NCBI GenBank assembly: GCA_036504475.1
Contig: DASXVB010000208.1
Location: 527-40,526 of the forward strand
Reading direction: 5' to 3'
DNA: 40,000 nucleotides
From: Methanosarcina sp.
GTDB lineage: Archaea; Halobacteriota; Methanosarcinia; Methanosarcinales; Methanosarcinaceae
In this document: in pieces, positions 6,114 through 30,287 of the stretch
Position numbering within the stretch: position 1 is the stretch's first letter
How the letters are laid out: the number at the start of each line of letters is the position of its first letter
Notes under the pieces: model-generated
Database searches by the model: none
Seen by the model: the letters and a program-made list of their open reading frames with translations, nothing else
Told to the model about the DNA's origin: nothing
Position numbers and translations under genes: made by a program

Positions 6114-7772
6114 TCAATGGAACATTGTGGCTTTTTTAAATTTCGCTATAGTACGGAACTCTTTAATATCCATATCATTCCCACTATACGGTATTTTCGT
6201 GAATTGTTCGTTATCATTCTGAATATATACGTACACCGCAGTTGGTTTAGTTTTACCTAAGATCCTTACTGTTTTTAAACTACCTGCTTCCTCCATTGAT
6301 TCTACAACTATATTAAGATCATGACTACCGCATTTTATTTTACGCATTAGTTTGGATCTTTCGATTTTCAAGTTTTTCCTCATCTCATCGTATACTTTAT
6401 CGCCAATCGAAGGCTGTACACCATTAGCTGATCCGATATCCGACATGATGGAACTAGCATAAGGAAGATAAACGTTGTCGAATAACCTTGCTGCATATAT
6501 GAACGATGCCAGCGTCACCGTCAAACGTTCGATTCTTAATTTGGCGACTTTCTCAAGATCCACAGCCATTATTTTTCTGTATATCTCTTCATCGCTTGGA
6601 ATTTCAGAAGGATTAACCTTCATATTTATTTCACTGACATCATCTAGAGAGTCCATTGTCGATAGTATGTAAGGCAGGTTTCCAATATCAATGAGTGCGA
6701 CTAGTTTCAGGGCAGTAGTTTGATATTTTCCAAAGAATGAATCTAGTTCGTGCCTCCTAGAACTAAAGAATAATTTCCTTTCTGCGCTCCATTTGTTGAG
6801 AAAACCGGCGTTTTCGTCGCCGTTTAAACTAAGCACACCTTCTTCAACGCCCAATTCAATGTCATTTTCTCCAAATAGAACGTTTATGATTTTTAATGAG
6901 TGTATCAGGGCTTTGGTTCTTAATGAGTCCTCACCTGATGTTATTCTAATTGGTCCTCTTGTCCTTTGGTATGTAGGGTTAACGATTATATGACGTGGTA
7001 GAAATCCCGTGTTGGCGTCTCCTGAAGTCATATGTTTACAGAAGTCTGATGTTGTAGTTGCCGCTATCATCGCGAAATACAGATTTTCAAGTTCGTATGT
7101 GTCATTAGACAGCGTATAATCAGGCATTTTCTCTTTGCACTCATACAACTCGTTAAATATATCTACAGTGCCTTTCATGTGCTGTTTTCCCAGTTGTGAA
7201 TATAAACTACCCGCCTCATCTTTCCAGTATACCCGCTGACCGTGTGGGATTTCACCGAATTTATCAAGCTCAGTGATTACGACTTCTCCTGTTTTCGTTC
7301 GTTCACCATGCCTGCAGGCGAGGATTTTTTGCAGTGTTTCAGGAGTACATTGGGAAGGTAAGAATGTTTCACCTACAGCCTCCCGTACGATCTTTTCGCC
7401 GATGCTCATAGGTCCTGATTTACGACTAGATGACAGTCCAAGTAATATCGCCCACACGTTAAGGTACTTCGTGGAACCGTTAAGGTTGAAATGCGCTCTC
7501 CGTCTAGTTACGGCTGATAACATGGCGAATCCTGTTTGCATGGAGTATTCAGGGTAAGCATCTGTTTGTTTCTTATTTGCCTCAACTAACAGTTTCACAA
7601 AGTTGTATCTAGGCATTCCATCGAAATTTACAGGTGCTATATCTGAGCGTTGGATTGGGACGTCCTCGAGTGATGGATACACTTCAATGTGTTCTGCGTC
7701 TTCGATATTGTCTTTATAGCCATGTGCGGTGATTACTTTAAGTTGATGAGGGTTGTCAATTTCGATAGCCAT
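6114..7772 (-). CDS. P-loop-like protein, putative replication/helicase-type protein of an integrated element (552 aa)
   Basis: Long ORF. The motif ILLGLSSSRKSGP resembles a degenerate Walker A (GxxxxxKS) of the kind seen in DUF3987-type plasmid/phage proteins. It lies in a minus-strand gene string with the small ORF, RHH and integrase genes. Function is inferred only. Confidence 0.55.
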   Translation of the reverse strand: MAIEIDNPHQLKVITAHGYKDNIEDAEHIEVYPSLEDVPIQRSDIAPVNFDGMPRYNFVKLLVEANKKQTDAYPEYSMQTGFAMLSAVTRRRAHFNLNGSTKYLNVWAILLGLSSSRKSGPMSIGEKIVREAVGETFLPSQCTPETLQKILACRHGERTKTGEVVITELDKFGEIPHGQRVYWKDEAGSLYSQLGKQHMKGTVDIFNELYECKEKMPDYTLSNDTYELENLYFAMIAATTTSDFCKHMTSGDANTGFLPRHIIVNPTYQRTRGPIRITSGEDSLRTKALIHSLKIINVLFGENDIELGVEEGVLSLNGDENAGFLNKWSAERKLFFSSRRHELDSFFGKYQTTALKLVALIDIGNLPYILSTMDSLDDVSEINMKVNPSEIPSDEEIYRKIMAVDLEKVAKLRIERLTVTLASFIYAARLFDNVYLPYASSIMSDIGSANGVQPSIGDKVYDEMRKNLKIERSKLMRKIKCGSHDLNIVVESMEEAGSLKTVRILGKTKPTAVYVYIQNDNEQFTKIPYSGNDMDIKEFRTIAKFKKATMFH

Positions 7773-7910
7773 TTACGCCACCTCCAAATGTGCGGCGAGT
7801 ACAGCTGAATAACTGCCAAACATAGGCTCATTTTTCAAAATCAGGCACGCTCTCGATAACAAACTTTCAAAAGCATTAAATACTCTGAAAGCATATTCTC
7901 TAGTGATCAT
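7773..7910 (-). CDS. small hypothetical protein (45 aa)
   Basis: MITREYAFRVFNAFESLLSRACLILKNEPMFGSYSAVLAAHLEVA. Its stop codon directly abuts the ATG of the 552-aa gene, suggesting translational coupling. It is below the ORF-track cutoff. Confidence 0.4.
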   Translation of the reverse strand: MITREYAFRVFNAFESLLSRACLILKNEPMFGSYSAVLAAHLEVA

Positions 7911-8031
7911 AAAAATAACTCCTAATTTCAATGGTTCGTACAGAGGAGTTCTAAGTACAGTGGGGTTTGAGCGGGAACTCAGATCCCATTAAAACATTCT
8001 GCACATTTTTCTTTCTGCTTTTCTAACCTTT

Positions 8032-8199
8032 TCATATACTTGGTACGCTGTGTGGTATTTCAACATCCGAAAAAACATCCGTTAGGATATTTGCTACAAA
8101 GGCTGATCTGCTTATTCTCTTCCTCGCCGCTTCAATCTTGTTGTACGTTTCAACGTCAACATATGCCATCACTGGTTTAAGTTCAACAGAATTTACCAT
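8032..8199 (-). CDS. ribbon-helix-helix (CopG/Arc-like) DNA-binding protein (55 aa)
   Basis: The translation is MVNSVELKPVMAYVDVETYNKIEAARKRISRSAFVANILTDVFSDVEIPHSVPSI. A beta-strand (PVMAYVD) followed by two helices, with the RSAFV motif, is the classic RHH pattern. It is below the ORF-track cutoff. Confidence 0.55.
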   Translation of the reverse strand: MVNSVELKPVMAYVDVETYNKIEAARKRISRSAFVANILTDVFSDVEIPHSVPSI

Positions 8200-8437
8200 A
8201 CACGTTCAACTCCGAATTATTTTATAATGTAAGTCAAGCCACAAATATCGCGGCATGTGGCAATATTATATAGGTGTTAAAACTATTTAAACCTGTCGAT
8301 AAATCGCATAAGCTACACTATTATAAAAGAGATTAAATTTTGGATATGCGACCAGCCTGTGTTTTTGGAATTTTGTTCTTTAATTGATAAATGTGTCAAT
8401 TGAATATAAATCTTCTGTATGGGATGGACTAAGAGCA

Positions 8438-9769
8438 CTAATAATCCGGACCCACGTCACTTCCATCGTCGGGTGGCAGTATAAGCCGGTTTGGATGGAT
8501 TTTTTGAACAAGTCTGGTGCCCAATTTGAATCCCTCTTGCGTGCCCTTTATTTCCCTATACAGTGAATCTATCTCGTTGCGTAGAGCGTTTAATTCCTCG
8601 CGTTCAATTGTTCCTTTCGCAACCTCGTTTTTCAAGTTGATAATTTCTTGCCTTTCGACGATATGTTTTGCCGTTTCAGCCCTCAATATATCGTTTTCTG
8701 ATTTAATAGCTTGATATTCGGGACTTTCGGATAAATCTAGCTCTTTTTGAATCGTTAAATAGGGAATGTACTTTTTATAGATCTCTTTGAGTTTTTCATG
8801 TGACGCTCTGAAGTAGCTCTCCTGTGTGCTTGGCAGAGTATGTCCCATGAAGTATTCAACATGAAAAAAGTCACAACCAGCATTTAATAAAGCACTGTTA
8901 AAATATTTTCGCATGTTATGCGAACGTATAAAGCCATAATCGCCTTTTTTTGTGTTTTTGCTTGCCTTTTCTGATACACTTTGGTACAACCGCATGAGAT
9001 TTTTTTGGGTGAACTTCCTCAGTTCATCGTCATGTTTTTCTAAAAACCCATCGGATACATTACGCACACAAAGCAAGTAATCACTGTCCGAATACACTTT
9101 TTGCTTTTCGAGTTGTTTTGTTCGTTTTGAATTGTCTGCCTTTACAGTCCGGTTTCTAAAGATGATGTATTCATTGACAGCGCGGCTTGCTTCAGGACTC
9201 AAAAATGTGATAAAATCCACATTTTCTTTAATTCTACGAAGTTTCAGCATTGTGATTTCCGTTGCTGGGTCATATCCGGCTAAAAAATCTTCAATTTTCA
9301 GATTTACAATTTCCTGGGCGCCTAATCCTGACGATGCGCCAATTAATATAATTGCTTTCTCAATGGGATCACAAACTTTTAAAACTGTTTGAATATCTTC
9401 CTTGCATGGTATGTCCTTATTCTCTTTAAGCCCGGTTGGTTTTTCAATTTTGAGTTTTGGAATATCGATGTAATTTGCTTGGTAAAATGATTTCACCGCT
9501 GTCAGATATGTTTTTATTGTATAGGGCGCAAGGTTCTGTGAAGTCAGATAATCTCTGAACTGATTGAGATGGATTGAAAGGTGACGGTTTCGCATTTTTA
9601 AATTGTCTTGTTCGAAGTCAGCTTCGTCGATAAGCTCATCCGGCGTTTTACCCAATTGTTCGCAATATATTTTTAGGACCGATGCGTATAACGTTTTAGT
9701 TGTACTCCTGGTAAATGAGTTTATCCAATTTACAAAAACTGGAAAGTCATTCATTCTAAAATTTTTCAT
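8438..9769 (-). CDS. int: tyrosine recombinase / phage-type integrase (443 aa) with a long coiled-coil C-terminal tail
   Basis: The C-terminal catalytic region IRSHNMRKYFNSALLNAGCDFFHVEYFMGHTLPSTQESYF carries the HxxR ... GH ... Y signature, and the N-terminus is SAM-like. The expected box I arginine is not obvious (SSGLGAQEIVNL). About 100 aa of heptad-like sequence follow the catalytic Tyr. Confidence 0.8.
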   Translation of the reverse strand: MKNFRMNDFPVFVNWINSFTRSTTKTLYASVLKIYCEQLGKTPDELIDEADFEQDNLKMRNRHLSIHLNQFRDYLTSQNLAPYTIKTYLTAVKSFYQANYIDIPKLKIEKPTGLKENKDIPCKEDIQTVLKVCDPIEKAIILIGASSGLGAQEIVNLKIEDFLAGYDPATEITMLKLRRIKENVDFITFLSPEASRAVNEYIIFRNRTVKADNSKRTKQLEKQKVYSDSDYLLCVRNVSDGFLEKHDDELRKFTQKNLMRLYQSVSEKASKNTKKGDYGFIRSHNMRKYFNSALLNAGCDFFHVEYFMGHTLPSTQESYFRASHEKLKEIYKKYIPYLTIQKELDLSESPEYQAIKSENDILRAETAKHIVERQEIINLKNEVAKGTIEREELNALRNEIDSLYREIKGTQEGFKLGTRLVQKIHPNRLILPPDDGSDVGPDY

Positions 9770-12502: not shown

Positions 12503-12781
12503 AATACCAGTATTAAAAAGATATTGATTTGAGTATCTTACCAAACATCCAAACAATATAAAAAAAGATAGGATTTATATTGATTAAAAAGCCCATTAAC
12601 TTGAAAATTTTGCGTAACTTATTTTAATTACATTTCTTTTGATTGTGATTTTCACCAGCTTGGTATTATTTTTATAAAAATTTGTGTTAACAGCTAAAAA
12701 GTGTTATGAGATTAAATAAAAATATGTTTTTATTAGTTTAAATTTTATAAAACCCCTCAAAAATGGGGAACATATATACCC
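12503..12781 (+). repeat. solo, diverged copy of the casposon terminal repeat (remnant end of an older casposon)
   Basis: It is homologous along its length to 29860-30179 and to the reverse complement of 12796-13110. For example, aataccagtattaaaaagatattgatttgagtatcttacc aligns with the equivalent arm segments. Its terminus ...catttttga..ggggaacatatataccc abuts the left TSD copy. Confidence 0.7.
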
Positions 12782-12795
12782 GATTAATATTAATA
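12782..12795. repeat. target-site duplication, left copy (GATTAATATTAATA)
   Basis: An identical 14-mer in direct orientation lies at 30180-30193, immediately outside the two inverted termini. Confidence 0.8.
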
Positions 12796-13110
12796 GGGAT
12801 ATAAGGGTTGGCATTTTTGATAGTTTTATTTGAATGTTTTAATAATATTTTAAAATTTAGATAGTAAAACTGTGATATTTTGACAGTAGTATATAATTTT
12901 CTCTCAAATCGTAACGCTATATTATTTTTACACAAAATCTTCTGCTTAATAACTCCAAATTATAAAAAATCACAATCAAGAGCGATGTAACAAAAATAAG
13001 TTACACAAGTTTTCAAGGTAAAAGCTTTTTAATCGATCTAAATCCTATCTTTTTGTTAGGTTGTTTGGTAAGATACTCAAACCAGAATATTATTAATACT
13101 AGCAAACTTT
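12796..13110. repeat. casposon left terminal inverted repeat (~315 bp)
   Basis: It starts gggatataagggttggcatttttgatagttttatttgaatgttttaataatattttaaaa. The reverse complement of the right end reads gggatatataggttggcatttttgatagttttatttgaatgttttaataatattttaaaa. Similarity by eye drops to about 70 percent further inward. Confidence 0.8.
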
Positions 13111-13398
13111 TACAAATTATTTGAATTTAACCTGAAAAAATTTACAATTTCCTTGTTACATTCCTAAAAAATAATCAAGTTATAAAGTATAACTGACGTC
13201 TTAATTGCCATAACAAAAAGTAAATTTTTTACATTTTTTTAAATTTGCTGAAAAAAATAAGGCCCTTTTTTATTAATTTTATAGTTATGAAAGAGAATGT
13301 GCTTTTATACTTTTTAGAAATTTAAATCAATTTATTATAAATCATTTTTAGTTAAGAAATTGAAGTACATTTTTCATATCAATTACGCTTAAAATTAT

Positions 13399-15873: not shown

Positions 15874-16872
15874 TTAATATAGAAAATTGATATCTTCCCT
15901 TCTTCCCTCTACATATTCCGCTAATTCAAACCCTTTCCTTTCTATTACTTTTCTTCTCGGAATAAGTTTTCCTTCATATTCTATTCTTTCACCCATTCGG
16001 GTTTCATAGGCCTTACTTAGCTTATCTGTCCCTCCCTCTCTTAACCTGAGAGAATAATTATTCATTCTCAAAAAATCGCTTTTAGGAACTCTAAAACCTT
16101 TTGAGAGTAATTTATAGACTGTTACATATATTTCTCCTCTAAAAATCTCCTGTAGATCGTATGCTAAACTTCGTTTTTCATTTCTCATTTCATGTAAAAA
16201 GCCGATACATGGATCAAGCCCTACTGTATTAATTACTCTCAAACATTCGGCTTCAAGTAAGGCATAACCATAATTTAGCATTGTATTAGTATAATCAGAG
16301 GCCCCCCTTCCAGATCTTTCTACAAAACCCCATTTTTCAGGAATAGCTTTCATAAATTCTTTCCAGTAGATTTTTGCTGATTCTCCTTCAATCCCCATTA
16401 ATTCAGGTATATCTTTTGCTTTATCGACTGCTTTAAGATATGGGGAAATAACATAAGATTCAATATCAGGATAAGGCAAGGATTCTAAAACCTTAATAGA
16501 ATTAGCTAGTTTAGCATTAATTATACTCTGAGCAATAGAAAATCTTCTCTTTTCATCATTATAGGTTTTATACTGTGCAATTTTCCGCTTTCCATTTCCC
16601 TCTTTTTCCTGATTAACAGAAGATAATAAACTACCATCCCAATTCAAAATATTAAGCTGAATGTTCTGTAAACTTATCCACTTAAAAGCTTCAAGGGAAA
16701 CATAGCCGGTTTGACCATAAATCAAGATAGATGTTATCTTTTTCTGATTTGGTTGTAAACAATAAATCTCTTCCTCTCTATCTTTAGTTAAAGGAATTCC
16801 GTTTTTAATTATAAGTTTCCCGTCATTAACTTTTAAAGAAATTCCATAACCATCCAAGAGTAAAAGACCCAT
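15874..16872 (-). CDS. cas1: Cas1 homolog, casposase (332 aa)
   Basis: NTMLNYGYALLEAECLRVINTVGLDPCIGFLHEMRNEKRSLAYDLQEIFR is the hallmark Cas1 core with the catalytic His and acidic residues. EGESAKIYW supplies the upstream Glu, and the N-terminus is the typical beta-rich domain. The gene sits next to PolB rather than cas2. Confidence 0.9.
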   Translation of the reverse strand: MGLLLLDGYGISLKVNDGKLIIKNGIPLTKDREEEIYCLQPNQKKITSILIYGQTGYVSLEAFKWISLQNIQLNILNWDGSLLSSVNQEKEGNGKRKIAQYKTYNDEKRRFSIAQSIINAKLANSIKVLESLPYPDIESYVISPYLKAVDKAKDIPELMGIEGESAKIYWKEFMKAIPEKWGFVERSGRGASDYTNTMLNYGYALLEAECLRVINTVGLDPCIGFLHEMRNEKRSLAYDLQEIFRGEIYVTVYKLLSKGFRVPKSDFLRMNNYSLRLREGGTDKLSKAYETRMGERIEYEGKLIPRRKVIERKGFELAEYVEGRREDINFLY

Positions 16873-17006
16873 AAATAATAAACGATGTAAACGAATAAAA
16901 ACGGTTTCAGGAATAATAAAAGGAAAGAGAGATTTATATGTAAAGAACTATCCAGTTCTTTAAGATAAATCTCTCAAGTTTCCAATAACTTAAAACTGTT
17001 ACATTA

Positions 17007-20000
17007 TTAATTAACGCTTAATATGTCTTTACAATAATTAACTAATATTGCTGGAACAATACAATTTAGGTTTAGGCTTTCATTTTTTCGGACCTTACTT
17101 TTTACATCCATTAAAGATTGCTCTGGAATTCCTAATTTTCCCACTTCTTTTACAGATAACCCTAGAATAATCTCTTTCTCTTTTTCTGTTGGCAAATGAT
17201 AATTGCCTCTCAGATGTTTTCTAGCTCGTTTTAAAGTCTTCAGAGATTCTTCTACCCATTTTATGGTGGGTTTTTCTAATCCGGTTTTATACGTTTCTAT
17301 TTCCTTTTTTATTTTTGATAAATCAGAGTTTCTAACGTCTCCTCTTCTTCTTGCTTTTTCCCAGGCAATCTCTACTTTTTCGGTTAAATTTTCAAGCTTC
17401 TCAAAAACCTGAACGTCATCTTCCTCTGCCTCAGGTAACTCTTCAAACTGCTTTACTTGATCAATTTCCTTTCCTATCGCTTTGATGCCTGTTATAAAGA
17501 TTTCTCTGCGTTTAAGCAGTCCTCTTTTTCCCGTGAATTTTGCTTCAGGATGGTTATAATAATCAAAAAAGGTTTTATCCATTCTATTAAAGTATTCAGT
17601 TCCTTCTTTTATTTCCCCTGTTTTTGCATCAATAAATGGATTATTAACCATGTCCTGAAAATTATCACTCATTGGAGCAATTGGCATTATGTCCTTATTA
17701 GGACTATTCCCTCTAAGGAAGAAATTATAAGGTTTAATTCGCTCTTCATATGGCTTTCCGCTATTGATTTGATTAAACCAGTAAAGGACTGTTGGTGTTC
17801 TGATCCCGATTTTTGATATTTCAAACTTATTTCCGTATTTTGAAATTATATCGGTTTCATCTAGGATTCCTTCGTGATAAAGGATAATATCTCTCCACAT
17901 TATTGGATGCCATTTTTTATTTTCTTCTGTTTCTATCTGAAAAATATTAGATATATGCCCCAATCCATGAAGCTTCCCCTCCATTCTTGTAATATCAGGG
18001 ACTCCGTTTTCGTCACGTGCAAAGACCACATATCTTTTTGAAGAGATTCCTAAAAAGAATTGTTGAGGAGTCCTTAATCCGGTTTCTTCATCTTTTACTC
18101 TTCCTTTGAATTTATCCTCAATTTTAAGAAGTTCAGAAACATTCTCATAAGGGTTTAATGGATTAAAGAAATTGGAAACCTCTTCCGCTATTTCTGGTGG
18201 CACGAAAATACTATCGGTATCCATGTAATAATGAGAATACCCTAGTTCCTTAACTTTAGCCTCTGCTATTGCTAACATAAGTCTTGAAGCGGCTGTTATT
18301 GTGGTTCCAATTAGTGGATTAAAAAATTTACCTTCTTTTTCCGATCTGCCAAAAGAAGTAAACTTTTCTTCTCCTCTACAGACTATTAATTCTTTTTCAG
18401 TTTCCTGAGTGTTTAATTCAACGAATATGCCATATCCAAGCGCGTTAGATAAAATTTTTAATCCAAGTTGTTTTCCATCCTTCTCTGAATACTCGGAAGA
18501 ATCTTCATCCAGTAATTTCATTTCCTTTTTAATTTTCTGTCTTTCCTCTACAAAGAATTTAATCAAATTATCTTTTCTTGGGTTTATTTTATATCCTAGT
18601 ATTTTAGTTGACTTTAATCCATTTTGTTTTGTTCCAGGTTCATACTTGTAAGCCATTAGTATTTCAGGGGTTTTTCCAGTAAGGAGCTTACTTGCTACTA
18701 CGTCACAAAGAGTGAACCAGATGCATTTATCTGAACTTAGATTCTCAAGTCCAACAGTTTTTTCTGTATTCTCATCGTAACCTGTTCTAAGTGGTAAAAT
18801 ATCATTATCCGGTTTCACTTTGACTATAGCAGGCATTTTTTTCCATATACTGGGATCTTGCATTTTTTCCAGGGTTATCGAGTCGACAAATTCCTTAATT
18901 TCTTCTGTTGCTTCTTTTTCAACATAGCAGTTTGAAATCATGTAGTCCCATAGTCCTATTAAAACGATAACCGAAGGATACATAGATGTAAAGTCTAAAA
19001 CTTCAGATGGTTTTATCTCATGCCTGAGTTTACATTCCACTCGGCCTGCATAGAAAGCTTCCATTATCCGACCTAAGCTATCAGAAGGATATTCAGGATT
19101 TAAGTCTAAAAATGGCTTTATTCCCATTTGTTTAAACAAGGCTTTGCCTATTGATGCACCACTATAAATTCTGTTAAAAGGAAGATCTTTTAAACCAATA
19201 TTCTTAATCGCTTCTTCTACTTTCACATATACGTCATATGTTGCTTTTACGTCACCCTGTAAATAAGTCAAGTACTCTTTGGTAATCTCTCCATGTTTTT
19301 CTACCTCTAATTTTTGATGTTCTGTTTTTAACATCTTACAGGCTTCTTTTAATGTAAAGTGTTGAGTACCAGATCCAAAAAGAACACTAACTAAATGCGA
19401 ACAATCAAAGAAGTATCCCTTCTTCTTTTCGTCAGTATTGTTAACCACTATTTTTCTTTTTCTTCCTTTTTTATCTATCATTTCTTCTTCACATTTTGCT
19501 TGCGAAAAACTGATAGATTCAGCTAAGCCCATTCTTCTTATTTTGATATTAGGTACTGTCGGAAATTCTGGAAAAGATAGGAGAATATCTCCCTTTCTTG
19601 GGTCACCTTTAACAGTATTCTCGGCTTTGCCAGCAATTCTGCTTAAATCAAAGGGTAAATTATAGCCAATGCAAGGCGTTTCTTTTCCATAGCATTCGGG
19701 TAAAAAGATATTCGCAATAAATTCAGATGTTGAATATAACGGAATATTTTTTTCTTCAGCATATTCCTTAAGTATCTTGATCTCCTTATAAGATGGTGGA
19801 ATTTGCATAAGGGAATTTTGCAGATTGGTAAAACGAGTATTTATTACCGCGTGTTTCTCAGGCATCGGAACATAAAAGAACCCGTTTTCCTGCAATTCCC
19901 CATTTTCCAAAATTTCAAAATACCCGACTTCCAAATTTTGATAACAGTCTGTCGTTGTTTCAGTATCAAGTACTAGAAGCCTAGGATATGATGTTTTTAA

Positions 20001-20093
20001 AGAGTCTTGATAAAAACCACAAAATTTTGAGCCTTTCTTTCTCCTTTCTTCGGTCTCGATATATCCTCTACAAAATGCTTCTTTGTATTCCAT
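17007..20093 (-). CDS. polB: family B DNA polymerase (1028 aa) with a C-terminal HTH-containing extension
   Basis: All motifs are present: Exo I LVLDTETT, Exo II YNLPFDL, Exo III YLQGDVKATYDVY, motif A DFTSMYPSV, motif B KILSNALGYGIF, motif C YYMDTDSIF, and KxY as SSKRYVV. Confidence 0.92.
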   Translation of the reverse strand: MEYKEAFCRGYIETEERRKKGSKFCGFYQDSLKTSYPRLLVLDTETTTDCYQNLEVGYFEILENGELQENGFFYVPMPEKHAVINTRFTNLQNSLMQIPPSYKEIKILKEYAEEKNIPLYSTSEFIANIFLPECYGKETPCIGYNLPFDLSRIAGKAENTVKGDPRKGDILLSFPEFPTVPNIKIRRMGLAESISFSQAKCEEEMIDKKGRKRKIVVNNTDEKKKGYFFDCSHLVSVLFGSGTQHFTLKEACKMLKTEHQKLEVEKHGEITKEYLTYLQGDVKATYDVYVKVEEAIKNIGLKDLPFNRIYSGASIGKALFKQMGIKPFLDLNPEYPSDSLGRIMEAFYAGRVECKLRHEIKPSEVLDFTSMYPSVIVLIGLWDYMISNCYVEKEATEEIKEFVDSITLEKMQDPSIWKKMPAIVKVKPDNDILPLRTGYDENTEKTVGLENLSSDKCIWFTLCDVVASKLLTGKTPEILMAYKYEPGTKQNGLKSTKILGYKINPRKDNLIKFFVEERQKIKKEMKLLDEDSSEYSEKDGKQLGLKILSNALGYGIFVELNTQETEKELIVCRGEEKFTSFGRSEKEGKFFNPLIGTTITAASRLMLAIAEAKVKELGYSHYYMDTDSIFVPPEIAEEVSNFFNPLNPYENVSELLKIEDKFKGRVKDEETGLRTPQQFFLGISSKRYVVFARDENGVPDITRMEGKLHGLGHISNIFQIETEENKKWHPIMWRDIILYHEGILDETDIISKYGNKFEISKIGIRTPTVLYWFNQINSGKPYEERIKPYNFFLRGNSPNKDIMPIAPMSDNFQDMVNNPFIDAKTGEIKEGTEYFNRMDKTFFDYYNHPEAKFTGKRGLLKRREIFITGIKAIGKEIDQVKQFEELPEAEEDDVQVFEKLENLTEKVEIAWEKARRRGDVRNSDLSKIKKEIETYKTGLEKPTIKWVEESLKTLKRARKHLRGNYHLPTEKEKEIILGLSVKEVGKLGIPEQSLMDVKSKVRKNESLNLNCIVPAILVNYCKDILSVN

Positions 20094-23042: not shown

Positions 23043-25811
23043 TCAATAGTTCCTATTTTCTTCCATCTCAGCTTTAATAGATTGAATATTTTGTTCACAT
23101 ATCTTGAAATGTGAATGACCACCACCAACTTTTTTTTCTAATATCTTAAGTGAGCGTTCAAGCAAAAACAAAGCTTTTTCGTACTCCTTCATTCTTGCAT
23201 AGAGTAGAGCGAGACCATTTAACGTTTCTGCAACGATAAGGTTTTCCAATCCAAGTGCCTTCTCGCGGATGTTAAGTGCAGGTATATAGAGTAAAAGTGC
23301 TGTTTCATAATCTTCCATTAGATAAAATACTCCTGCGAGAGCGTTTAGCGTTGCTGCAACATTAAGGCTTTCTGCTCCGAATATCTTTGTGTTGATGTCA
23401 AGTGTACGCATATAAAGCGAAAGCGCTGTTTCGTATTCTCCAGCTTTTATATAAAATCCTGCGATATTGTGTAGTTTTGTTGCAACTTCAGGGTGTTCTG
23501 GACCAAGTACTTTTTCAGATATTTCGAGTGCACGTATATAGAGTAAAAGTTCTTTTTCATACTCTCCCATTTTTTCATAAAGCATAGCAAGATTGTTTAA
23601 TATTTTTGCAGTATTGGGATGTTCAGATCCGAGCACATTTTCTATTATTTCGAGTGCACGTAGATAAAGTGGAAGAGCTTTTTCGTACTCTTCAAGATGT
23701 TCATATAGTAGAGCGAGGCCGTTTAGTGTGTTTCCAACATCAAGATGTTCAGGTCCAAGCACTTCTTCAGATATTTCGAGTGCCCGTAGATAAAGTGGAA
23801 GAGCTTTTTCGTATTCCCTTGTTTGAAAATATAGTCCTGCTAGATTGTGTAGTGATGTTGCAACGTGAAGTTTTTTTGATTCAAGCATTTTTTCAGTTAT
23901 TTCGAGTGAACGTATATAATGCAGAAATTCTTTGTCATGCTCTGCTATGTCTTCGTAGAGTGTAGTAAGATTCTTTAGCTCTTTTTCAGATATTTCAAGT
24001 GCTCGGATAAAGAGTGGAAGAGCGTTTTCATACTCTCCTGTGAGACAATATAGTCCTGCGAGATTATTTAGCGTTGTTGAAACGCAAGGGTGTTCAGAAC
24101 CAAACTCTTTTTCGGATATTTCTATTGCACGTATATGGAGTGGAAGAGCTTTTTCATACTTACCCATCTTTGTATATAGTATAGCGATATTACTTAATAT
24201 TTCAACAACTTTAGGTTCTTCCGGATTATTTCTGGTTTCCATAATCTGGAGTAACTCTTCATATATAGGGGTAATTAAGTGCCAAAAAGCTGCTCTGTCA
24301 AATGGATCTGAAGCAGCAATAAACCAATTATATAAATCTTTGGTTTCAAGCGTCTTTTTTGCGTGATAAAAGGCTTCTGTCATGGCTTTTTCATGTTCGA
24401 GGGTTATTTCTTTAATATCGATTTCCCTTAGTTTGCCATTATAATGCTCAAACATGAATTCATGGACACTTCTCCTTTCCTCAGGCTCGTTATGTTCTTG
24501 ATATTCTTGCCAGCTCTGCCTCATTAACCGGTGCATACTCCATTGACCTTTCTCTAATTCATCAATAAAAGAAAAACTATGAATCCTAGATATTTCATTT
24601 GGGGGACAACGTGTGAATTTTGTAACTAGAATATTCAATATCTCGCGATTCCAAAAGCGAGGCACAGAGAGAACTTTTATCAACGATTCTTTTCCCTCAT
24701 CTAGATATTTTATGAAACTGTTAAAAACCTCTTTTGGTACCTCTGCAAAATCACCTGGACACGGTTCTCTGATGTTCTTTATGCTTTTATAGGTGTCAAT
24801 TGAGAGATCCAAGTAATAAGGCACGCCAGCACTGCTATTGATAATAGCATCTTGGATATCATTCTCAAGGACACCATAGTATTTGAGCAAGTAACGAGCA
24901 TCTTCTTCTGGAAGGCTTCCAATCTCATGCGTTTCAATTAAATTTTCCCACATCAATTTTTCTTTGTCAGTATATTTTGCCCATTGGGGGGGTTCTTGTC
25001 CGCAAAGTACCCAGAGGCAGGAAGAAGAGAGAAGTTTTTGTATCAATTTTCTAATCCATTGATCTGCGGAACTTAATTTCGCCAGAGACCTGTCTTTTCC
25101 CCAGAGAGCCTCATAACTGTCTATAAAGATAACTGCCGCCTCAGATGTTTTTTGAAGATATTTATGTAAGTCATAAGCCCAGTAAAGATAAAGCCGCTTT
25201 TCAATTTCTGATGGTTCCATATTTACTAGTCGGGAAATTTCATCCGTATTTTCCAAAGCCCACTCACTGTATTTTTCCGGCAATTTCTTGACGAGGTTTC
25301 TTATATTTAATAGTAACTTTGTCGGATTAAACACACCACCAATGCTCGATAAGTCATCTCCAATATCAAGTAAGTGGGTAACGATGCTGTCTTTAGAATA
25401 GTTTTCTCGGTACAGAGGAACTCGTGGGTTTACTTTTTTCCAATAAAGAGCGTGTGCAATATCGAACATATGGAATCTGATACCATATTCATCCTGAAAC
25501 TGATCTCTCAATATTTCCAAGAATTTCTGAGGATGCCTAAACTCTTCAGTTTCAAAATTTACTGCTACCCATAAAATACTGGATTTTTTGTGCAACCCAT
25601 TATACTCTATAATTACTTTGGGTAGTTCTTTTCGTAGGCTTGTTTTACCTATACCAGCAACTCCATAGTAGATCAAAACGCTGCGTTCTTTTTCCTTTAT
25701 ATTTTCAAGGGCATTTTTGAAAGCCTGAATGAATTCCTCTCTATCTACAAAGGGTCTTTCTTCCCCTGAAATCCTTTCCTCTTTCTCGGAAAAAAATGAA
25801 ACAAATGACAC
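23043..25811 (-). CDS. STAND-type P-loop NTPase fused to a TPR array (922 aa)
   Basis: Walker A is YGVAGIGKTSL and Walker B-like is AAVIFIDSYEALW. The C-terminal ~390 aa consist of about 9 tandem TPR units (ALPLYLRALEISEKVLGPEHP.VA..LNNLA.LY). Confidence 0.85.
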   Translation of the reverse strand: MSFVSFFSEKEERISGEERPFVDREEFIQAFKNALENIKEKERSVLIYYGVAGIGKTSLRKELPKVIIEYNGLHKKSSILWVAVNFETEEFRHPQKFLEILRDQFQDEYGIRFHMFDIAHALYWKKVNPRVPLYRENYSKDSIVTHLLDIGDDLSSIGGVFNPTKLLLNIRNLVKKLPEKYSEWALENTDEISRLVNMEPSEIEKRLYLYWAYDLHKYLQKTSEAAVIFIDSYEALWGKDRSLAKLSSADQWIRKLIQKLLSSSCLWVLCGQEPPQWAKYTDKEKLMWENLIETHEIGSLPEEDARYLLKYYGVLENDIQDAIINSSAGVPYYLDLSIDTYKSIKNIREPCPGDFAEVPKEVFNSFIKYLDEGKESLIKVLSVPRFWNREILNILVTKFTRCPPNEISRIHSFSFIDELEKGQWSMHRLMRQSWQEYQEHNEPEERRSVHEFMFEHYNGKLREIDIKEITLEHEKAMTEAFYHAKKTLETKDLYNWFIAASDPFDRAAFWHLITPIYEELLQIMETRNNPEEPKVVEILSNIAILYTKMGKYEKALPLHIRAIEISEKEFGSEHPCVSTTLNNLAGLYCLTGEYENALPLFIRALEISEKELKNLTTLYEDIAEHDKEFLHYIRSLEITEKMLESKKLHVATSLHNLAGLYFQTREYEKALPLYLRALEISEEVLGPEHLDVGNTLNGLALLYEHLEEYEKALPLYLRALEIIENVLGSEHPNTAKILNNLAMLYEKMGEYEKELLLYIRALEISEKVLGPEHPEVATKLHNIAGFYIKAGEYETALSLYMRTLDINTKIFGAESLNVAATLNALAGVFYLMEDYETALLLYIPALNIREKALGLENLIVAETLNGLALLYARMKEYEKALFLLERSLKILEKKVGGGHSHFKICEQNIQSIKAEMEENRNY

Positions 25812-26107
25812 TGAATCGTCACTCCTTACTTTCTACGTAAGTCAAAAACATTGAAGACTTATGTTTGAGGTATTCTATAATACACTATCGAAATTAGCAG
25901 ATATTATAGTGAGTGTTTTAGTAAACTAATGAGAGATTTAATTGTATAGAAAATTAGGATCTCCAAGTTTTATGACAAAGTTTAAGTTTTAGAGAGAAAA
26001 CACATTCGAGCTAATGGTTTGATCTACTTTAGAAAAGAAGCCAACAACATTGAAAATCAGCCTTTGGACGTAGAAAAGCCACAGCTTTTCATTAATGTAG
26101 AAGAGAA

Positions 26108-26245
26108 ATGAACTTTATTTTGGCTTTAACCCCTGGGGAAATCCGAAAAACAGGGATCAAGCACAGGAGTGGATTAAAGTATCTAAAGGAAAAAGCGAGG
26201 GAGGGAAAGTTAAATTTTAATACGTCTGTTATGAAAAAATTATAA
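26108..26245 (+). CDS. small HTH ORF (45 aa) homologous to the PolB C-terminal tail; possibly a gene remnant
   Basis: MNFILALTPGEIRKTGIKHRSGLKYLKEKAREGKLNFNTSVMKKL aligns with PolB residues ..EIILGLSVKEVGKLGIPEQSLMDVKSKVRKNESLNLNCIVPAIL (IL.L...E..K.GI...S......K.....LN.N..V). It is on the opposite strand to polB. Confidence 0.45.
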   Translation: MNFILALTPGEIRKTGIKHRSGLKYLKEKAREGKLNFNTSVMKKL

Positions 26246-26321
26246 AATATTATAATTCTTGAGTATGTGAAACTTTAAGTTATACAACTGAGAATTTTTT
26301 AAAAAAAGAAAAATTAAAAAA

Positions 26322-26440
26322 ACTTGGAGTAGTCGCTTAAAATTCCAGGGCTTTTCCATGAGGATAGAGGAAAGTAATGTTTTTATTCAGAATAAGACTC
26401 CTTAAAGACGATAGAGCTTAGGCAAAATAAAGAAGTACCT
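26322..26440 (+). pseudogene. Cas1 N-terminal remnant (frameshifted)
   Basis: Frames read ..LKFQGFSMRIEESNVFIQNKTP* then LLKDDRA* then LRQNKEV. These parallel the intact Cas1 sequence LLLDGYGISLKVNDGKLIIKNGIPLTKDREEEIYCLQPNQKK. The spacing after the PolB-tail-like ORF is the same as in the intact polB-cas1 junction. Confidence 0.45.
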
Positions 26441-26831
26441 TAGATTGTTTGAAAAACTTTCCTCTGCTAATTTTTGATTTAATTAAAAATTCTTTTGCTT
26501 TTTCAAGATTGCTTTGAGTTCTTGCATAGTCAATTCATTGGTCATCGGTTAAGGAATTTTCTTGCCTGAAAGCTATCGATTTTGCACCTTAAGCCTGATT
26601 AAACTTTGGCCTTTTTACATGAAATCGATACCTTGTTCCAGTCCACAATATGTTAAAATTTATAACAACTGTTGTGGAAATGGAGGCAATTTGTCACGAT
26701 TCCTCACTTAACCGAAGACGCATGATAGTCAATTGGATATTTGTCAACAGTATAAGTACTGAAAAAAAGATGAATTCCAGCGTAGAGATCTCACAGCATC
26801 CTGTTGACTCTGAAAAGTTGTCAAGAAACCA

Positions 26832-28478
26832 TTATTTTTTTTCTATGTTTTTTCCCTTCCAGCTTTTTAACTGACGGATTTTCAAACTGGAATCAATGCA
26901 TTTAATAGTATTCGCATTAAGTCTATGTGGATAACATAACAAGAAATAATACATAAATTGTAGTTTGTCATTTACGACTTCTGGTGTAAGTAGATCTATT
27001 TTAGTTGCCTCAATAGTTAACTCGTTCCAGCTTTGAGGCATTTTGTAATCTTTCATACTTGTTTTCCCGTTATAGCATCGCCATAAGAATAAATCCGCTT
27101 TTAAATCAGGTTGAAATGTATACTTACAGATACGCGTAATTTCTTCCCACACTACTTCTAGTAAGTCTCTGCGCTTTCTTCTAACTAAGATATCAACCAG
27201 TGCTCCTAAGTGATAAGAAGAACCATGAAATGCCATCGAGTCAATTTCGACTTCAGAAATGCCATGCATTGAAGAAATTATCTCATTTGAGCTTATATAA
27301 GGACTCGGTATTCCTTTTCCCTTATAGTCATTTCCAAATGTTATTTCCGATATGATATCAGTAATTATCCTGTTTGACAATTCTTTGTCATTGAATTCTA
27401 AAGCTACTAAACTCATTATTATGAAGAAAGGTGTAGCTGACTCTCCCCAGTACCAAATTTTTTTAGGATATAGTCTCTTTATGAATTCATAGATCAGATT
27501 GTCAATTTCGTAGTTACTTTCAGTTTTATTTCTGAAAAGCTCATAAGCCGATAGCCAGCCAAGAACAATAGTTAACCTTGCTTTATATATCTCTCCTCCG
27601 TCACCAAATGGCATTCCTTCTAAATAATTTTCTTTAGAGATAAATTCCTTTTTTAACTCTTCTAATTGATTATTTATTTTTTGTAATATAATTTCATAAG
27701 ATTGGATCCAATCTTTTTCTGCTAATGAGAACTTTTCTATCAAATTAAACATATAACTGCAAAGTATAGTCCATCCCTCAATTATTGGAATATGATTTTT
27801 CTTGTTCTCATAAGGTTGTAAGACATATTGGGTCAATAGTATACTACTTGAAATCTTTCTCTTAATAGAAGGTTTACTATTACTTTTTGCAAACAAGATA
27901 GATTCAATAAAATTAGCATAGAGGTCTTTATTCAGAAATCCGTCCCCTTCTGAAAGAAATAACTCCAAAAATACTCGAAATTCTGAAGGTTCTACGGGCA
28001 GAAATGATCCATGAATTCCTAAAAACTTTTGAACTAATTCGGGGTAAATTATTGTATTAAGTTTTGGATATCCTTGTTGTTTATTTTTCAAGTTTATATC
28101 AGCAATATTTTTTATAACAGGTTCAGAAATTAATCCGTTAGTTACTAAAAAAGGTTTATGCTCAGCAGATATATCAACAGATGGATGATTTATGGGAATT
28201 CTAATTAGATCCATGATTTCTCCCTGTATATTTCTCCACTCAGCTGTTTTGATATTTCCACCTTTTAATTGGAATGCATGAACAGTTCCGTCCTTATCTA
28301 TCGAGATTATGTCCTTACCTTGTTCTATGGAACTATGAGATGAAATAGAAATTATTTTATGATTTTCAGAAATAAGATACTGGCAAAAGGGGATCTGATA
28401 ACCAATTTCATTGGTATTAGTCAACCAATTTTCGATTACTCTCTTTATCAATCCACTCTCTCCTTTTTCTTTCAACAA
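26832..28478 (-). CDS. hypothetical protein with a PD-(D/E)xK-like nuclease-fold N-terminus (548 aa; start uncertain)
   Basis: The N-terminal segment NEIGYQIPFCQYLISENHKIISISSHSSIEQGKDIISIDKDGTVHAFQLKGGNI resembles the E...GxD(I/V)(I/V)..D....h.(Q/E)xK core of Mrr/DUF4365-type restriction-fold domains. The remainder is helical. It overlaps the upstream 196-aa gene by up to 62 nt. Confidence 0.65.
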   Translation of the reverse strand: MLKEKGESGLIKRVIENWLTNTNEIGYQIPFCQYLISENHKIISISSHSSIEQGKDIISIDKDGTVHAFQLKGGNIKTAEWRNIQGEIMDLIRIPINHPSVDISAEHKPFLVTNGLISEPVIKNIADINLKNKQQGYPKLNTIIYPELVQKFLGIHGSFLPVEPSEFRVFLELFLSEGDGFLNKDLYANFIESILFAKSNSKPSIKRKISSSILLTQYVLQPYENKKNHIPIIEGWTILCSYMFNLIEKFSLAEKDWIQSYEIILQKINNQLEELKKEFISKENYLEGMPFGDGGEIYKARLTIVLGWLSAYELFRNKTESNYEIDNLIYEFIKRLYPKKIWYWGESATPFFIIMSLVALEFNDKELSNRIITDIISEITFGNDYKGKGIPSPYISSNEIISSMHGISEVEIDSMAFHGSSYHLGALVDILVRRKRRDLLEVVWEEITRICKYTFQPDLKADLFLWRCYNGKTSMKDYKMPQSWNELTIEATKIDLLTPEVVNDKLQFMYYFLLCYPHRLNANTIKCIDSSLKIRQLKSWKGKNIEKK

Positions 28479-29007
28479 TTTCTCTTATTTTTTCCTGTAT
28501 ATTTGGGTCAAATTGCATTTTTGAGTAATCACTTTTGATTCTTTCATAATCATTTGGATTGACGATGATATCCGGCATAGTTGGGTTTCCAAACTCATCA
28601 AAAATAATACTCACCTTATCTAATACTTCCAAATACCATTCAGATATCGGTTTTGATTTGCAATCTACTCTGTTTCCTGTTTGATGCGTAGTTTCTTCGA
28701 AAGCATCAATTAAAAGTTTGCCTTGTTTTTTCCTCATTTCTTCAGTGATTTCTGAAAATTTAGAATAATAAGCATCTAATCCCTTTTCGATCAAATCTTC
28801 AGGTTTTATTCTTAACTCTGTCGAAATTGTTTTAAATTCTTTTTCTTCTGAACGTCCACTTGCACTATTTATTTCCAAATTATTTCCTTCATATATGGGT
28901 CTTTTTTGAGCAACTTTCATTAACGTATCTTTTTGAGTCTCTTTTATCATATTTCTTTGAAAATTAATCAGAAGCTTCCTTTTTATTTCTGGATAATCAG
29001 GTAACAT
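28417..29007 (-). CDS. hypothetical protein (196 aa), first gene of a two-gene cassette
   Basis: Clean ORF with a charged C-terminus (KIREIVERKRREWIDKESNRKLVD) that overlaps the next gene. No motif recognised. Confidence 0.6.
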   Translation of the reverse strand: MLPDYPEIKRKLLINFQRNMIKETQKDTLMKVAQKRPIYEGNNLEINSASGRSEEKEFKTISTELRIKPEDLIEKGLDAYYSKFSEITEEMRKKQGKLLIDAFEETTHQTGNRVDCKSKPISEWYLEVLDKVSIIFDEFGNPTMPDIIVNPNDYERIKSDYSKMQFDPNIQEKIREIVERKRREWIDKESNRKLVD

Positions 29008-29508
29008 ATAATAACCTATAGATTTTCAATTTAAAACTTCTTGCTCAAGTAAATATATAGATTCTTTATGTAGGGAATGTATCAAAATTTCTGTAAATCT
29101 TCTCTGATAAGTTTAACGGCTACAAAATAATAAAGTATAGCCTTTTTGGTTCTATGTAACCATTGAGGTTTATCTCCTTAGTAACTCAGAGTTTATTCTG
29201 TTTTTTAACTTAATGTTCCCATACAATAAGAATCTGAGAGTTTCCGCCGACAAAAGTATACGTTAGAACAAAATCGTTTTGAGAATTACCTATCCAGTCT
29301 AAAACAAGACTTTTGAAGCTATTTCTCTTACACTAGCATCAAAAAATTTGATTTTTTTTATCAGATTAATTCTATAGATAATATATATTTAATACATGAA
29401 AACATTTGAGAAATTATCCTGAAGAAATTTCTCAGTTGCATCGAAAATTGAGTATTTTATTCAACGTATATTACAAAAACAAATATTTTTTTAGTCGATA
29501 TAACTTTT

Positions 29509-29785: not shown

Positions 29786-29859
29786 TAATTTTCCTATATC
29801 TCAAAATTTAGTTCAAGGGATAAGATTCAAACCCAAAATATCAAATTAAATCTTTTTTG

Positions 29860-30179
29860 GAAAAATTTTCTGGTATTAAAACGATATTTTCTTTTGAATA
29901 TCTTTACAAAACAAATAAAGAAAAAGATTTAGATTAGATTAAAAAATTCAGAAATTCTACAAAATTTCACGTAACTATTTTTGATTACAGTTCTACCCAT
30001 TGTGATTTCAACAATTTAGAATTACTAAACAGAAAATTTCTGATAAAAAATGCATTAGTGTTACGGTTTTAGAGAAAAGTATGAATGACTGCTAGAAAAT
30101 AACATTTTTACTATCAAAGTTTTAAAATATTATTAAAACATTCAAATAAAACTATCAAAAATGCCAACCTATATATCCC
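29860..30179. repeat. casposon right terminal inverted repeat (~320 bp)
   Basis: It ends ...ttttaaaatattattaaaacattcaaataaaactatcaaaaatgccaacctatatatccc, which is the reverse complement of the left terminus. Confidence 0.8.
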
Positions 30180-30193
30180 GATTAATATTAATA
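30180..30193. repeat. target-site duplication, right copy (GATTAATATTAATA)
   Basis: Identical to 12782-12795. Confidence 0.8.
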
Positions 30194-30287
30194 AGTACAT
30201 AACTTTTACAAAGAAAGGAAGATAAATAAGAATAAATTCAAAAACCAATAGCATTGACCCTCTCAGTCTCATCCAGGAAAGGATAAT

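Follow-up and report, generated by a model that had tools for sequence, protein, structure and literature searches.

The two overlapping genes at positions 26,832 to 29,007 of the window, the whole 40,000-nucleotide stretch of a Methanosarcina sp. contig analyzed here, form a conserved, horizontally mobile module that spans archaea and bacteria and has no named family. We suggest that they encode a bicistronic, translationally coupled two-subunit conflict system, most likely one that acts in defense against viruses or plasmids, and we judge the chances of this reading to be about even. The geometry of the pair, the co-divergence of its two proteins, a nuclease fold, an accessory and mobile distribution, and the frequency of defense and mobile-element contexts all argue for a defensive role; against it stand housekeeping surroundings at five of 13 annotated loci, absence of the pair from plasmid, phage, and viral collections, the lack of any PADLOC or NCBIfam model, and an unusual QxK variant of the catalytic motif.

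Both genes lie on the minus strand, with open reading frames of 196 and 548 amino acids as the original prediction described them. The small-subunit gene (28417..29007, ATG start) precedes the large-subunit gene, whose longest reading frame (26832..28478, first in-frame TTG at 28478) does overlap it by the 62 nucleotides originally given as the maximum. Comparison of 79 loci, however, points to a conserved start at TTG 28451-28449, which yields a protein of 539 amino acids (26832..28451, minus strand) and a dual-coding overlap of 35 nucleotides instead (28417..28451, minus strand), in which the small frame ends in IDKESNRKLVD and a stop codon and the large frame opens with M-IKRVIENWLTN. (Residue numbers of the large protein follow the 548-amino-acid frame throughout.) An ATG, GTG, or TTG stands exactly 35 nucleotides before the end of the small gene at 69 of the 79 loci, archaeal and bacterial alike, and the nucleotides of the overlap are nearly identical across them. 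Within the small gene, a Shine-Dalgarno-like AGGAGAG (28458..28464, minus strand) places its GGAG core (28463-28460) 8 nucleotides upstream of the large-gene TTG; AGGAG or AGGAA recurs at this position, ahead of the -35 start, from locus to locus and is specified by the (K/E)-E-W codons of the small protein. Judged from sequence, this motif is a putative translational-coupling signal, and the conserved overlap supports the earlier expectation that the two proteins are co-translated. Flanking the pair on the minus strand are a candidate archaeal TATA box, TATATATTT (29051..29059), 44-52 nucleotides upstream of the small-gene ATG, and a candidate archaeal terminator, a run of seven T residues (26762..26768) located 64-70 nucleotides downstream of the large-gene stop; both are proposed from their letters and position.

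The pair behaves as a fixed unit. At every one of 80 genome loci the small gene precedes the large one on the same strand, and so it does in each of the 12 contexts from metagenomes or genomes that were examined individually; the failure of homologs to co-localize, which the original prediction had named as a refutation, was not seen, nor does the pair correspond to a known metabolic or structural operon, another outcome it had named. Small and large proteins co-diverge (r = 0.83, 69 pairs), and none of 2000 permutations gave a correlation as high. At a threshold of E ≤ 1e-3, 1,518 cluster representatives of uniform length were retrieved with the large protein, and the family numbers about 1,500 clusters at 50% identity; 26 homologs of the small protein were found by sequence. 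Since the large protein has so many relatives and the small gene precedes it at 80 of 80 loci, both reading frames are real genes rather than chance. No third component recurs: when 850 neighboring open reading frames were clustered, the commonest neighbor family occurred at four of 79 loci, and probe BLAST searches around related loci for restriction-modification, STAND, integrase, GmrSD, Cas1, PolB, and capsid genes gave sporadic matches at most.

The family extends across archaea and more than 15 bacterial phyla, CPR and DPANN lineages included, and is nevertheless patchy, the pair being present in one of 61 related genomes and in none of 36 genomes of the same genus. Its tree mixes phyla, the archaea fall in two separate clades, and near-identical copies occur in different phyla. 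The pair is accessory and horizontally transferred. It was not found among 72,556 plasmids, 50,697 phages, or the IMG/VR viral contigs, collections that are biased toward cultivated hosts; many defense systems ride plasmids, phages, and viral elements.

The large protein is predicted with confidence (AF2 pLDDT 89.1, pTM 0.89), and its homologs are 510-550 amino acids long with a consensus start of M-I-x-R-V-I-E-N-W-L. Residues ~10-136 (28071..28451, minus strand) form a PD-(D/E)xK nuclease domain as judged from conservation, AF2, and Foldseek. In the AF2 model a helix (24-37), three strands (41-45, 57-60, and 66-72), a second helix (78-93), and a fourth strand (107-113) make up the alpha-beta-beta-beta-alpha-beta core of the superfamily, a fold that Foldseek also recovers: the domain matches NucS (2vld, probability 1.00), EndoMS (5gke, 0.99), and Card1 (6wxw, 0.99), and Shedu and EcoO109I at lower probability. 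Residues E24 (codon 28407-28409), E52 (28323-28325), K55, D56 (28311-28313), Q70 (28269-28271), and K72 (28263-28265) are invariant among 66 homologs of 33-86% identity. D56 lies directly before the predicted strand 57-60, and Q70-x-K72 sits on strand 66-72, so that the catalytic D...(D/E/Q)-x-K motif is present in its QxK rather than its ExK form. The original prediction had placed a nuclease-like motif in this segment (residues 26-74 of the 548-amino-acid frame), and structure prediction bears it out. Variants with D...QxK and other displaced acidic residues are known in active members of the superfamily, Mrr-like and Cfr10I-like cases among them. With a glutamine where an acidic residue is usual, nuclease activity is, on sequence grounds, plausible but not certain.

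The remainder of the large protein, a domain of ~390 amino acids (residues ~160-548; 26835..28001, minus strand) delimited by AF2 and conservation, is mostly helical with a single beta-hairpin and a pLDDT mostly above 90. Foldseek comparison of this domain with the PDB gave just low-probability helical-repeat matches, no Pfam family matched it in 66 members, and PDB sequence searches returned no match; the early description of it as helical sequence without known motifs agrees with these results. Several of its polar residues are invariant or nearly so (E278, D293, R301, E346, N383, R437, H518, and R519), E346 within a W-G-E-S motif. Homologs of outlying length carry no domain fusions, the one DDE_3 match among them having the look of a gene-call artifact. 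At several loci the large gene is split or truncated; sequencing errors are possible in some of those assemblies.

The small protein, modeled at a pLDDT of 77.5, has a conserved N-terminus (MLPDYP) and a C-terminal tail of the form W..RE.NRKLVD; between these, E40-G41 and F136 are invariant. No recognizable domain had been seen in it, and Pfam, NCBIfam, PHROGs, and PADLOC, together with Foldseek searches of its model against the PDB and BFVD, likewise returned no family or fold; Pfam, NCBIfam, and the AF2 model gave no indication of a DNA-binding domain of the HTH or RHH type.

Neither protein could be assigned to a named system, as had been anticipated from sequence inspection. Neither has a significant match in Pfam, NCBIfam, PHROGs, or PADLOC; the large protein of the window has no Pfam match at E ≤ 1, and no Pfam family is common to more than one of 66 homologs. 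The component models of PADLOC-DB v2.0.0 match neither protein even at E ≤ 1, the NCBIfam anti-phage models do not match, sequence searches of the PDB, whether by single sequence or by profile, gave noise, and our literature search found no description of this gene pair. Pfam, NCBIfam, and PDB sequence searches place the large protein outside Mrr_cat, NucS, Cap4/DUF4297, Shedu/DUF4263, and HamA/DUF1837. Its N-terminal ~125 residues share with NucS/EndoMS and Mrr the core fold and the canonical catalytic positions, with conserved glutamates E24 and E52 near the catalytic site, but the protein lacks both the N-terminal DNA-binding domain of NucS and the winged-helix domain of Mrr, and it adds a unique 390-amino-acid helical domain that always comes with the 196-amino-acid partner. 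Card1/Can2 (CRISPR ancillary), Shedu (DUF4263), and Hachiman HamA follow a comparable logic, coupling a PD-(D/E)xK nuclease to a module for sensing or regulation; the nuclease domain of the large protein is similar to that of Card1 and, weakly, to that of Shedu, and the pair resides in defense islands and mobile elements. Unlike these systems, the pair has no CARF, SAVED, or helicase partner, its nuclease is N-terminal, and its partner is a small protein without a known fold match.

The surroundings of the pair are mixed. Of 13 annotated contexts, eight fall in mobile-element or defense islands and five in housekeeping regions. The contexts include a type I restriction-modification locus with RES; a provirus; an integrative and conjugative element with nSTAND and integrase genes; a PRTRC region with GmrSD_N and AAA_15; a locus with GmrSD upstream and TIR downstream, together with an integrase and IS91; and, in this window, a casposon that also carries a STAND NTPase. 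Of 94 immediate neighbors, about 10 match PADLOC models at E < 1e-40, a raw tally taken without a background control. The original prediction called the pair a candidate two-gene defense module; the strict pairing, the nuclease fold, and the frequent defense and mobile contexts are in keeping with that candidacy, while defense itself is something we infer in the face of the housekeeping contexts.

The casposon of the window is a terminal inverted repeat (TIR)-bounded element whose right TIR (29856..30192) pairs with 12783-13116 (147 nucleotides at 84% in the repeat search, 344 bp at 76% by blastn) and whose core comprises Cas1 (15874-16872) and PolB (17007-20093; core, 15874-20093). No exact 14-bp target-site duplication was found directly outside the TIR termini, and tblastn detected no PolB or Cas1 remnant at ~26.1-26.4 kb. 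The pair sits between the TIRs, ~850 nucleotides inside the right one, and is thus casposon cargo by location. The element is of the same TIR-bounded, Cas1-plus-PolB type as the family 2 casposons of Methanosarcina (Krupovic et al. 2016, PMC4779613). Tblastn with the window's own Cas1 and PolB found these genes at none of 80 related loci, and the closest homologs of the pair (67-70% identity) lie in ordinary chromosomal, non-casposon contexts. The pair is neither part of the casposon core nor habitual casposon cargo.

On the reading that we prefer, a two-subunit conflict system, we infer complex formation, nuclease activity, a trigger, and a defense phenotype as follows. The large subunit would be the effector, its N-terminal domain a metal-dependent PD-(D/E)xK DNA endonuclease with E24/E52, D56, and Q70-x-K72 as the catalytic set. 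The C-terminal helical domain, which appears to be of a new kind, is probably a sensor or regulator, since its conserved polar residues suggest the binding of a ligand or partner. The small subunit would be produced in fixed ratio by way of the 35-nucleotide overlap with its internal ribosome-binding site, and probably binds the large one, either silencing the nuclease or making it selective for its target until an invader is detected. What the nuclease then cuts might be the DNA of the invader or, in an abortive-infection mode, that of the host.

Much of this evidence would also suit a toxin-antitoxin-like addiction module, in which a nuclease toxin and a small, labile antitoxin stabilize the carrier element through post-segregational killing, with no dedicated sensing of invaders. 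A small upstream gene that overlaps a downstream nuclease gene is the classic type II layout; the strict co-occurrence and co-divergence of the pair, its residence on a casposon, an integrative and conjugative element, a provirus, and IS-rich islands, and its patchy, horizontally transferred distribution fit as well, and split or truncated large genes at several loci, some possibly the product of sequencing errors, are what one would expect of a toxic gene. With the AbiE and AbiG systems, as with type II modules, the pair shares the form of an accessory, mobile-element-borne operon of two genes, in which the small gene comes first and the frames overlap. Yet both proteins are far larger than those of typical type II pairs and neither matches a toxin-antitoxin or Abi family, the comparison of the small-protein profile with AbiGII (E = 0.07) being not significant. 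Moreover, an HTH or RHH domain with which the small protein might regulate its own operon was not detected, a conserved extra domain of 390 amino acids would be superfluous in a simple toxin, and the pair is missing from the 72,556 plasmids, on which addiction modules are frequent. We consider an addiction module unlikely, if worth keeping in mind. The boundary between such a module and abortive-infection defense is not sharp.

A second alternative is that the pair is an accessory of DNA repair or recombination, a NucS/EndoMS- or Mrr-like nuclease with a DNA-handling helical domain and a cofactor, which would process damaged DNA or unusual DNA structures on behalf of the host or in the replication and integration of the carrier element. 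In structure the nuclease domain is indeed closest to the mismatch-repair nucleases NucS and EndoMS, one close homolog adjoins uvrB and uvrC, an ERCC4 nuclease lies 3 kb from one locus of housekeeping context, and such contexts account for five of the 13. The likeness to NucS, however, is limited to the generic nuclease core, without membership of the NucS or Mrr families at the sequence level; no repair gene recurs among the neighbors; and occurrence in one of 61 related genomes and none of 36 in the genus, with rampant horizontal transfer, is unlike a core repair function. We regard a repair role as improbable. It is about as improbable that the pair is a selfish, self-mobilizing nuclease cassette that would insert itself between unrelated genes and whose own break drives its spread, in the manner of a homing endonuclease or a restriction-modification-like selfish element: the pair often stands alone between unrelated housekeeping genes, has a very wide phyletic spread with near-identical copies in different phyla, and in one chromosome is duplicated at two sites as a 2.9-kb cassette (the pair and short flanks) of 99.9% identity, but the cassette shows neither terminal inverted repeats nor target-site duplications and encodes no recombinase, integrases and transposases do not consistently adjoin the pair, and the nuclease has no recognizable sequence-specific DNA-binding module.

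Within the two-subunit reading, one specific role for the small subunit deserves mention, although we hold it to be highly improbable: it could be an exapted, truncated capsid protein of the HK97 type, retaining the N-arm, the E-loop hairpin, and the spine helix, that serves as a bait or mimic. It would engage a viral capsid protein or the assembly machinery of an invader, and the nuclease would thereby be released or activated. The idea derives from weak profile matches in a common register, to the HK97-type NF042927 (E = 0.007; eight of 27 members match, the best at 3e-4), to phrog_544 (E = 0.013), and to the capsid protein of phage NF5 (9m66, E = 0.054), in which the invariant E-G of the small protein aligns with that of the small capsid family. 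Among 67 diverse members of the small-protein family just four show the NCBIfam capsid match, and an unrelated family scores better. Profile-profile comparison by hhalign gave a probability of 5.9% against a purpose-built NF5-type capsid alignment and 0.1 against the capsid of a neighboring provirus, HK97 structures are absent from the fold matches of the small protein in the PDB, and relaxed tblastn against phages found nothing. Relatives yielded no member of the NF042927 capsid family when searched, and the controls were equally silent. The profile-profile probability and the PDB folds leave the capsid identity of the small protein unconfirmed. If correct, a domesticated structural protein of viral origin would have become the sensor of a defense system, one that in this case travels on a casposon.

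Whatever its trigger, the pair offers in its 35-nucleotide junction, conserved nearly letter for letter in both prokaryotic domains, an unusually clean natural case of obligatory translational coupling, and one that can be used as a simple DNA signature with which to find the system. Casposons are the presumed ancestors of CRISPR adaptation modules, and the element of this window indicates that they can acquire and carry candidate immune cargo, here beside a STAND NTPase. If a role in defense or abortive infection is confirmed, the pair would constitute a new nuclease system of two components that escapes Pfam, NCBIfam, and PADLOC and whose helical domain and small partner could reveal a new means of sensing invaders or of gating a nuclease.

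The reading of the pair that the evidence best supports, and to which we give an even chance, is a two-subunit conflict system with a gated PD-(D/E)xK nuclease that serves as anti-virus or anti-plasmid defence. Both minus-strand genes of the original prediction are present, with the coordinates and sizes claimed. The small gene (28417..29007, minus strand) begins with ATG and encodes 196 aa; the longest frame of the large gene (26832..28478, minus strand) encodes 548 aa counted from the first in-frame TTG, and residues of the large protein are numbered in this 548-aa frame throughout. The proposed overlap of up to 62 nt holds as an upper limit and fails as the actual overlap, since the conserved start gives 35 nt. 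A start codon (ATG, GTG, or TTG) sits precisely 35 nt ahead of the small gene's last base in 69 of 79 homologous loci, archaeal and bacterial, with an AGGAG or AGGAA motif 5′ of it. Because the window shows the same start (TTG, 28451-28449, minus strand) and the same arrangement (AGGAGAG, 28464-28458, minus strand), the large protein is most likely 539 aa long. The overlap, TTGATAAAGAGAGTAATCGAAAATTGGTTGACTAA, codes in two frames, as ...IDKESNRKLVD and a stop codon in the small protein and as M-IKRVIENWLTN in the large; it holds invariant residues of both (R192, L194, and V195; E16, N17, and L19, respectively), and few of its nucleotides vary across loci, only where both frames tolerate the change. 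A TATA-like element 5′ of the operon (29059-29051, minus strand) and a T7 run 3′ of it (26768-26762, minus strand), both recognized from sequence only, suggest a self-contained transcription unit.

The large protein has no significant match in Pfam, NCBIfam, PHROGs, or PADLOC, its 66 homologues share no common Pfam family, and PDB searches by sequence and by profile returned nothing. Its AlphaFold2 model, built from the 66-sequence alignment, is confident (pLDDT 89.1, pTM 0.89) and forms a helix-strand-strand-strand-helix-strand unit over the first ~135 residues. Foldseek matches this N-terminal part to the PD-(D/E)xK nucleases NucS (2vld, prob 1.00), EndoMS (5gke, 0.99), and Card1 (6wxw, 0.99, rmsd 4.0 Å), and more weakly to Shedu and EcoO109I. 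The motif segment quoted originally corresponds to residues 26-74; D56 lies directly ahead of predicted strand 57-60, Q70-L71-K72 lies on strand 66-72, and E24, E52, K55, D56, Q70, and K72 are invariant among homologues of 33-86% identity. Since fold, motif position, and conservation all fit, the PD-(D/E)xK-like N-terminus first proposed is supported as a nuclease; the motif is a QxK variant, with which the predicted activity is plausible. By fold and motif this head belongs to the PD-(D/E)xK superfamily, although its sequence places it in no named family. Residues ~160-548 are modeled as almost wholly helical with one hairpin, as the earlier description of a helical remainder without known motifs anticipated; Foldseek gives just low-probability helical repeats, and the domain has no detectable relatives in library and fold searches. 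Polar residues strongly conserved there (E278, D293, R301, E346 within W-G-E-S, N383, R437, H518, and R519) point to a specific, presumably binding or catalytic, role.

The two genes travel together. At E≤1e-3 the large protein has 1,518 homologous cluster representatives (708 of them at ≤1e-30), nearly all of 510-550 aa and aligned end to end. Each of 80 loci from named genomes, and each of 12 contexts from exact protein look-up, has the small partner directly 5′ of the large gene and in the same orientation, confirming that the homologues co-localize; a word-based protein search yielded 26 small partners, a figure that reflects, per the alignments, a sensitivity limit and not absence. Identities of the two proteins correlate pairwise (r = 0.83, 69 pairs; 0 of 2000 permutations as high), and this co-divergence shows inheritance as a unit, linked genes being expected to co-diverge, so that contact is not thereby proven. 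No third gene recurs, the commonest neighbour family appearing in 4 of 79 loci. At six loci (L053, L056, L063, L072, L076, and L082) the large gene is broken into two or three ORFs, possibly as pseudogenes, a fate to be expected of a costly gene, or through frameshift errors in long-read assemblies.

The small protein, described earlier as lacking a recognizable domain, indeed gives no significant match in Pfam, NCBIfam, PHROGs, PADLOC, or fold searches, and has no detectable relatives there beyond its own family. In its moderate AF2 model (pLDDT 77.5), a helix at the N-terminus is followed by a small beta-hairpin region (residues 38-57), a helix of 27 residues (84-110), and further helices at the C-terminus. 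Weak matches in three libraries, identical in register, lead to one small HK97-fold capsid family: NF042927 (E = 0.007 for the window protein; 8 of 27 members match, best 3e-4), phrog_544 (E = 0.013), and PDB 9m66 (E = 0.054), the capsid protein of Brochothrix phage NF5 (PMC12917162). For a direct test, an alignment of the NF5 capsid family (PF25209) was built and compared with the small-protein family by hhalign, giving a probability of 5.9% and, over 112 columns, a pairwise P of 0.006; the invariant E-G of one family aligned with that of the other. The capsid model is matched by 4 of 67 diverse small-protein members and outscored by an unrelated family; HK97 structures are absent from the matches of the PDB fold search, and the capsid gene adjoining the pair in a provirus gave a probability of 0.1. 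We regard kinship with capsid proteins as a lead that is not confirmed.

That provirus, from a Bathyarchaeote (L002:4711-13410), is tailed and carries the pair between head genes (cement protein, Phage_capsid_4 capsid) and tail genes (AF_1625_C, Phage_tube_2), a moron-like placement inside the structural module. Other settings include type I R-M, a RES protein, and an integrase fragment in Methanolobus zinderi (L001); a conjugative element with an integrase (L006), where an nSTAND-TPR protein is encoded 2 kb downstream of a distant homologue of the pair; an IS-rich island adjoining uvrBC (L090); an MGE-like block with ORF6N and PemK (L093); and housekeeping genes at five loci (L003, L004, L005, L095, and the contig of homologue P0003). 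GmrSD-type (DUF262) type IV restriction genes lie near the pair in two unrelated loci: directly upstream in L094:7552-11920, which also has an integrase, IS91, and a TIR protein directly downstream, and within 4 kb in L007:3857-9638, a PRTRC region with GmrSD_N, AAA_15/21, and DUF5677. Of 94 genes directly flanking the pair in independent genome loci, about 10 match PADLOC models very strongly (type I and type III methyltransferases, SIR2, pPIWI, retron-type PRTase, IetA, DitA, MADS components, PDC-M30B, and PDC-M41B), and the rest are diverse; this looks like defence-gene enrichment, as a raw tally without background control. The main rival, a toxin-antitoxin-like addiction module, grades into abortive infection; we consider it rather unlikely.

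Among related genomes the pair is rare (1 of 61 searched; 0 of 36 same-genus species, 0 of 24 from the same order), and its wider range takes in six or more archaeal lineages and over 15 bacterial phyla, CPR groups included. The large-protein tree intermixes phyla, and archaea form two separate well-supported clades, one nested among bacteria. Near-identical large proteins in MAGs assigned to Actinomycetota and Saccharimonadota (L029, L034) and to Acidobacteriota and Actinomycetota (L041, L043) come either from a very recent transfer event or from contigs placed in the wrong bin; binning errors could explain some single cases, but not the whole phylum-mixing pattern. So patchy and transferred a distribution disfavours a role in DNA repair, which we hold to be very improbable. 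Searches of 72,556 plasmids, 50,697 phage records, and IMG/VR viral contigs found no member of the family. A 2.9-kb cassette occurs twice on one bacterial chromosome (OZ244870.1), ~660 kb apart and at 99.9% identity (L014:9347-12254 and L015:9347-12253), and comprises the pair, a downstream 104-aa ORF with no Pfam match, and short flanks; its ends show no inverted repeats, target duplications, or transposon-like ends, and a self-mobilizing nuclease cassette, being without ends or recombinase, is the least probable of the rivals.

The window's pair is carried by a casposon, ~850 nt inward of the element's right TIR (TIRs, 12783-13116 and 29856-30192; Cas1, 15874-16872; PolB, 17007-20093). The termini at 12755-12812 and 30163-30220 match well (ATTAATATTAAT...GGTTGGC), and blastn lengthens the TIRs to ~340 bp at 76%; with these boundaries, no exact direct repeat of ≥9 bp lies directly outside the two termini. 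The window's own PolB and Cas1 gave no tblastn match at E≤1 in 25800-26900. The casposon also encodes, ~1 kb downstream from the pair, a 922-aa STAND-type NTPase (23043-25811, minus strand) with weak N-terminal AAA_16, NACHT, and ATPase_2 matches, about nine TPR units, and marginal PADLOC matches only. Left of the casposon, a DUF3987 protein (552 aa) and a tyrosine integrase (443 aa) at 6114-9769 (minus strand) suggest a second integrated element. Since Cas1 and PolB occur in 0 of 80 related loci, this casposon acquired the module, and casposons do not habitually carry the pair.

PADLOC systems and NCBIfam anti-phage families gave no match to either protein, as expected from the original statement that the pair fits no named system, and we found no published description of it in the literature. 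We class it as a two-gene conflict module of the nuclease-effector kind. In such a two-subunit conflict system, the effector would be the PD-(D/E)xK nuclease of the large subunit, and both the new helical domain and the small partner, co-translated stoichiometrically, would gate it; the system may then work against viruses or plasmids, possibly via abortive infection.
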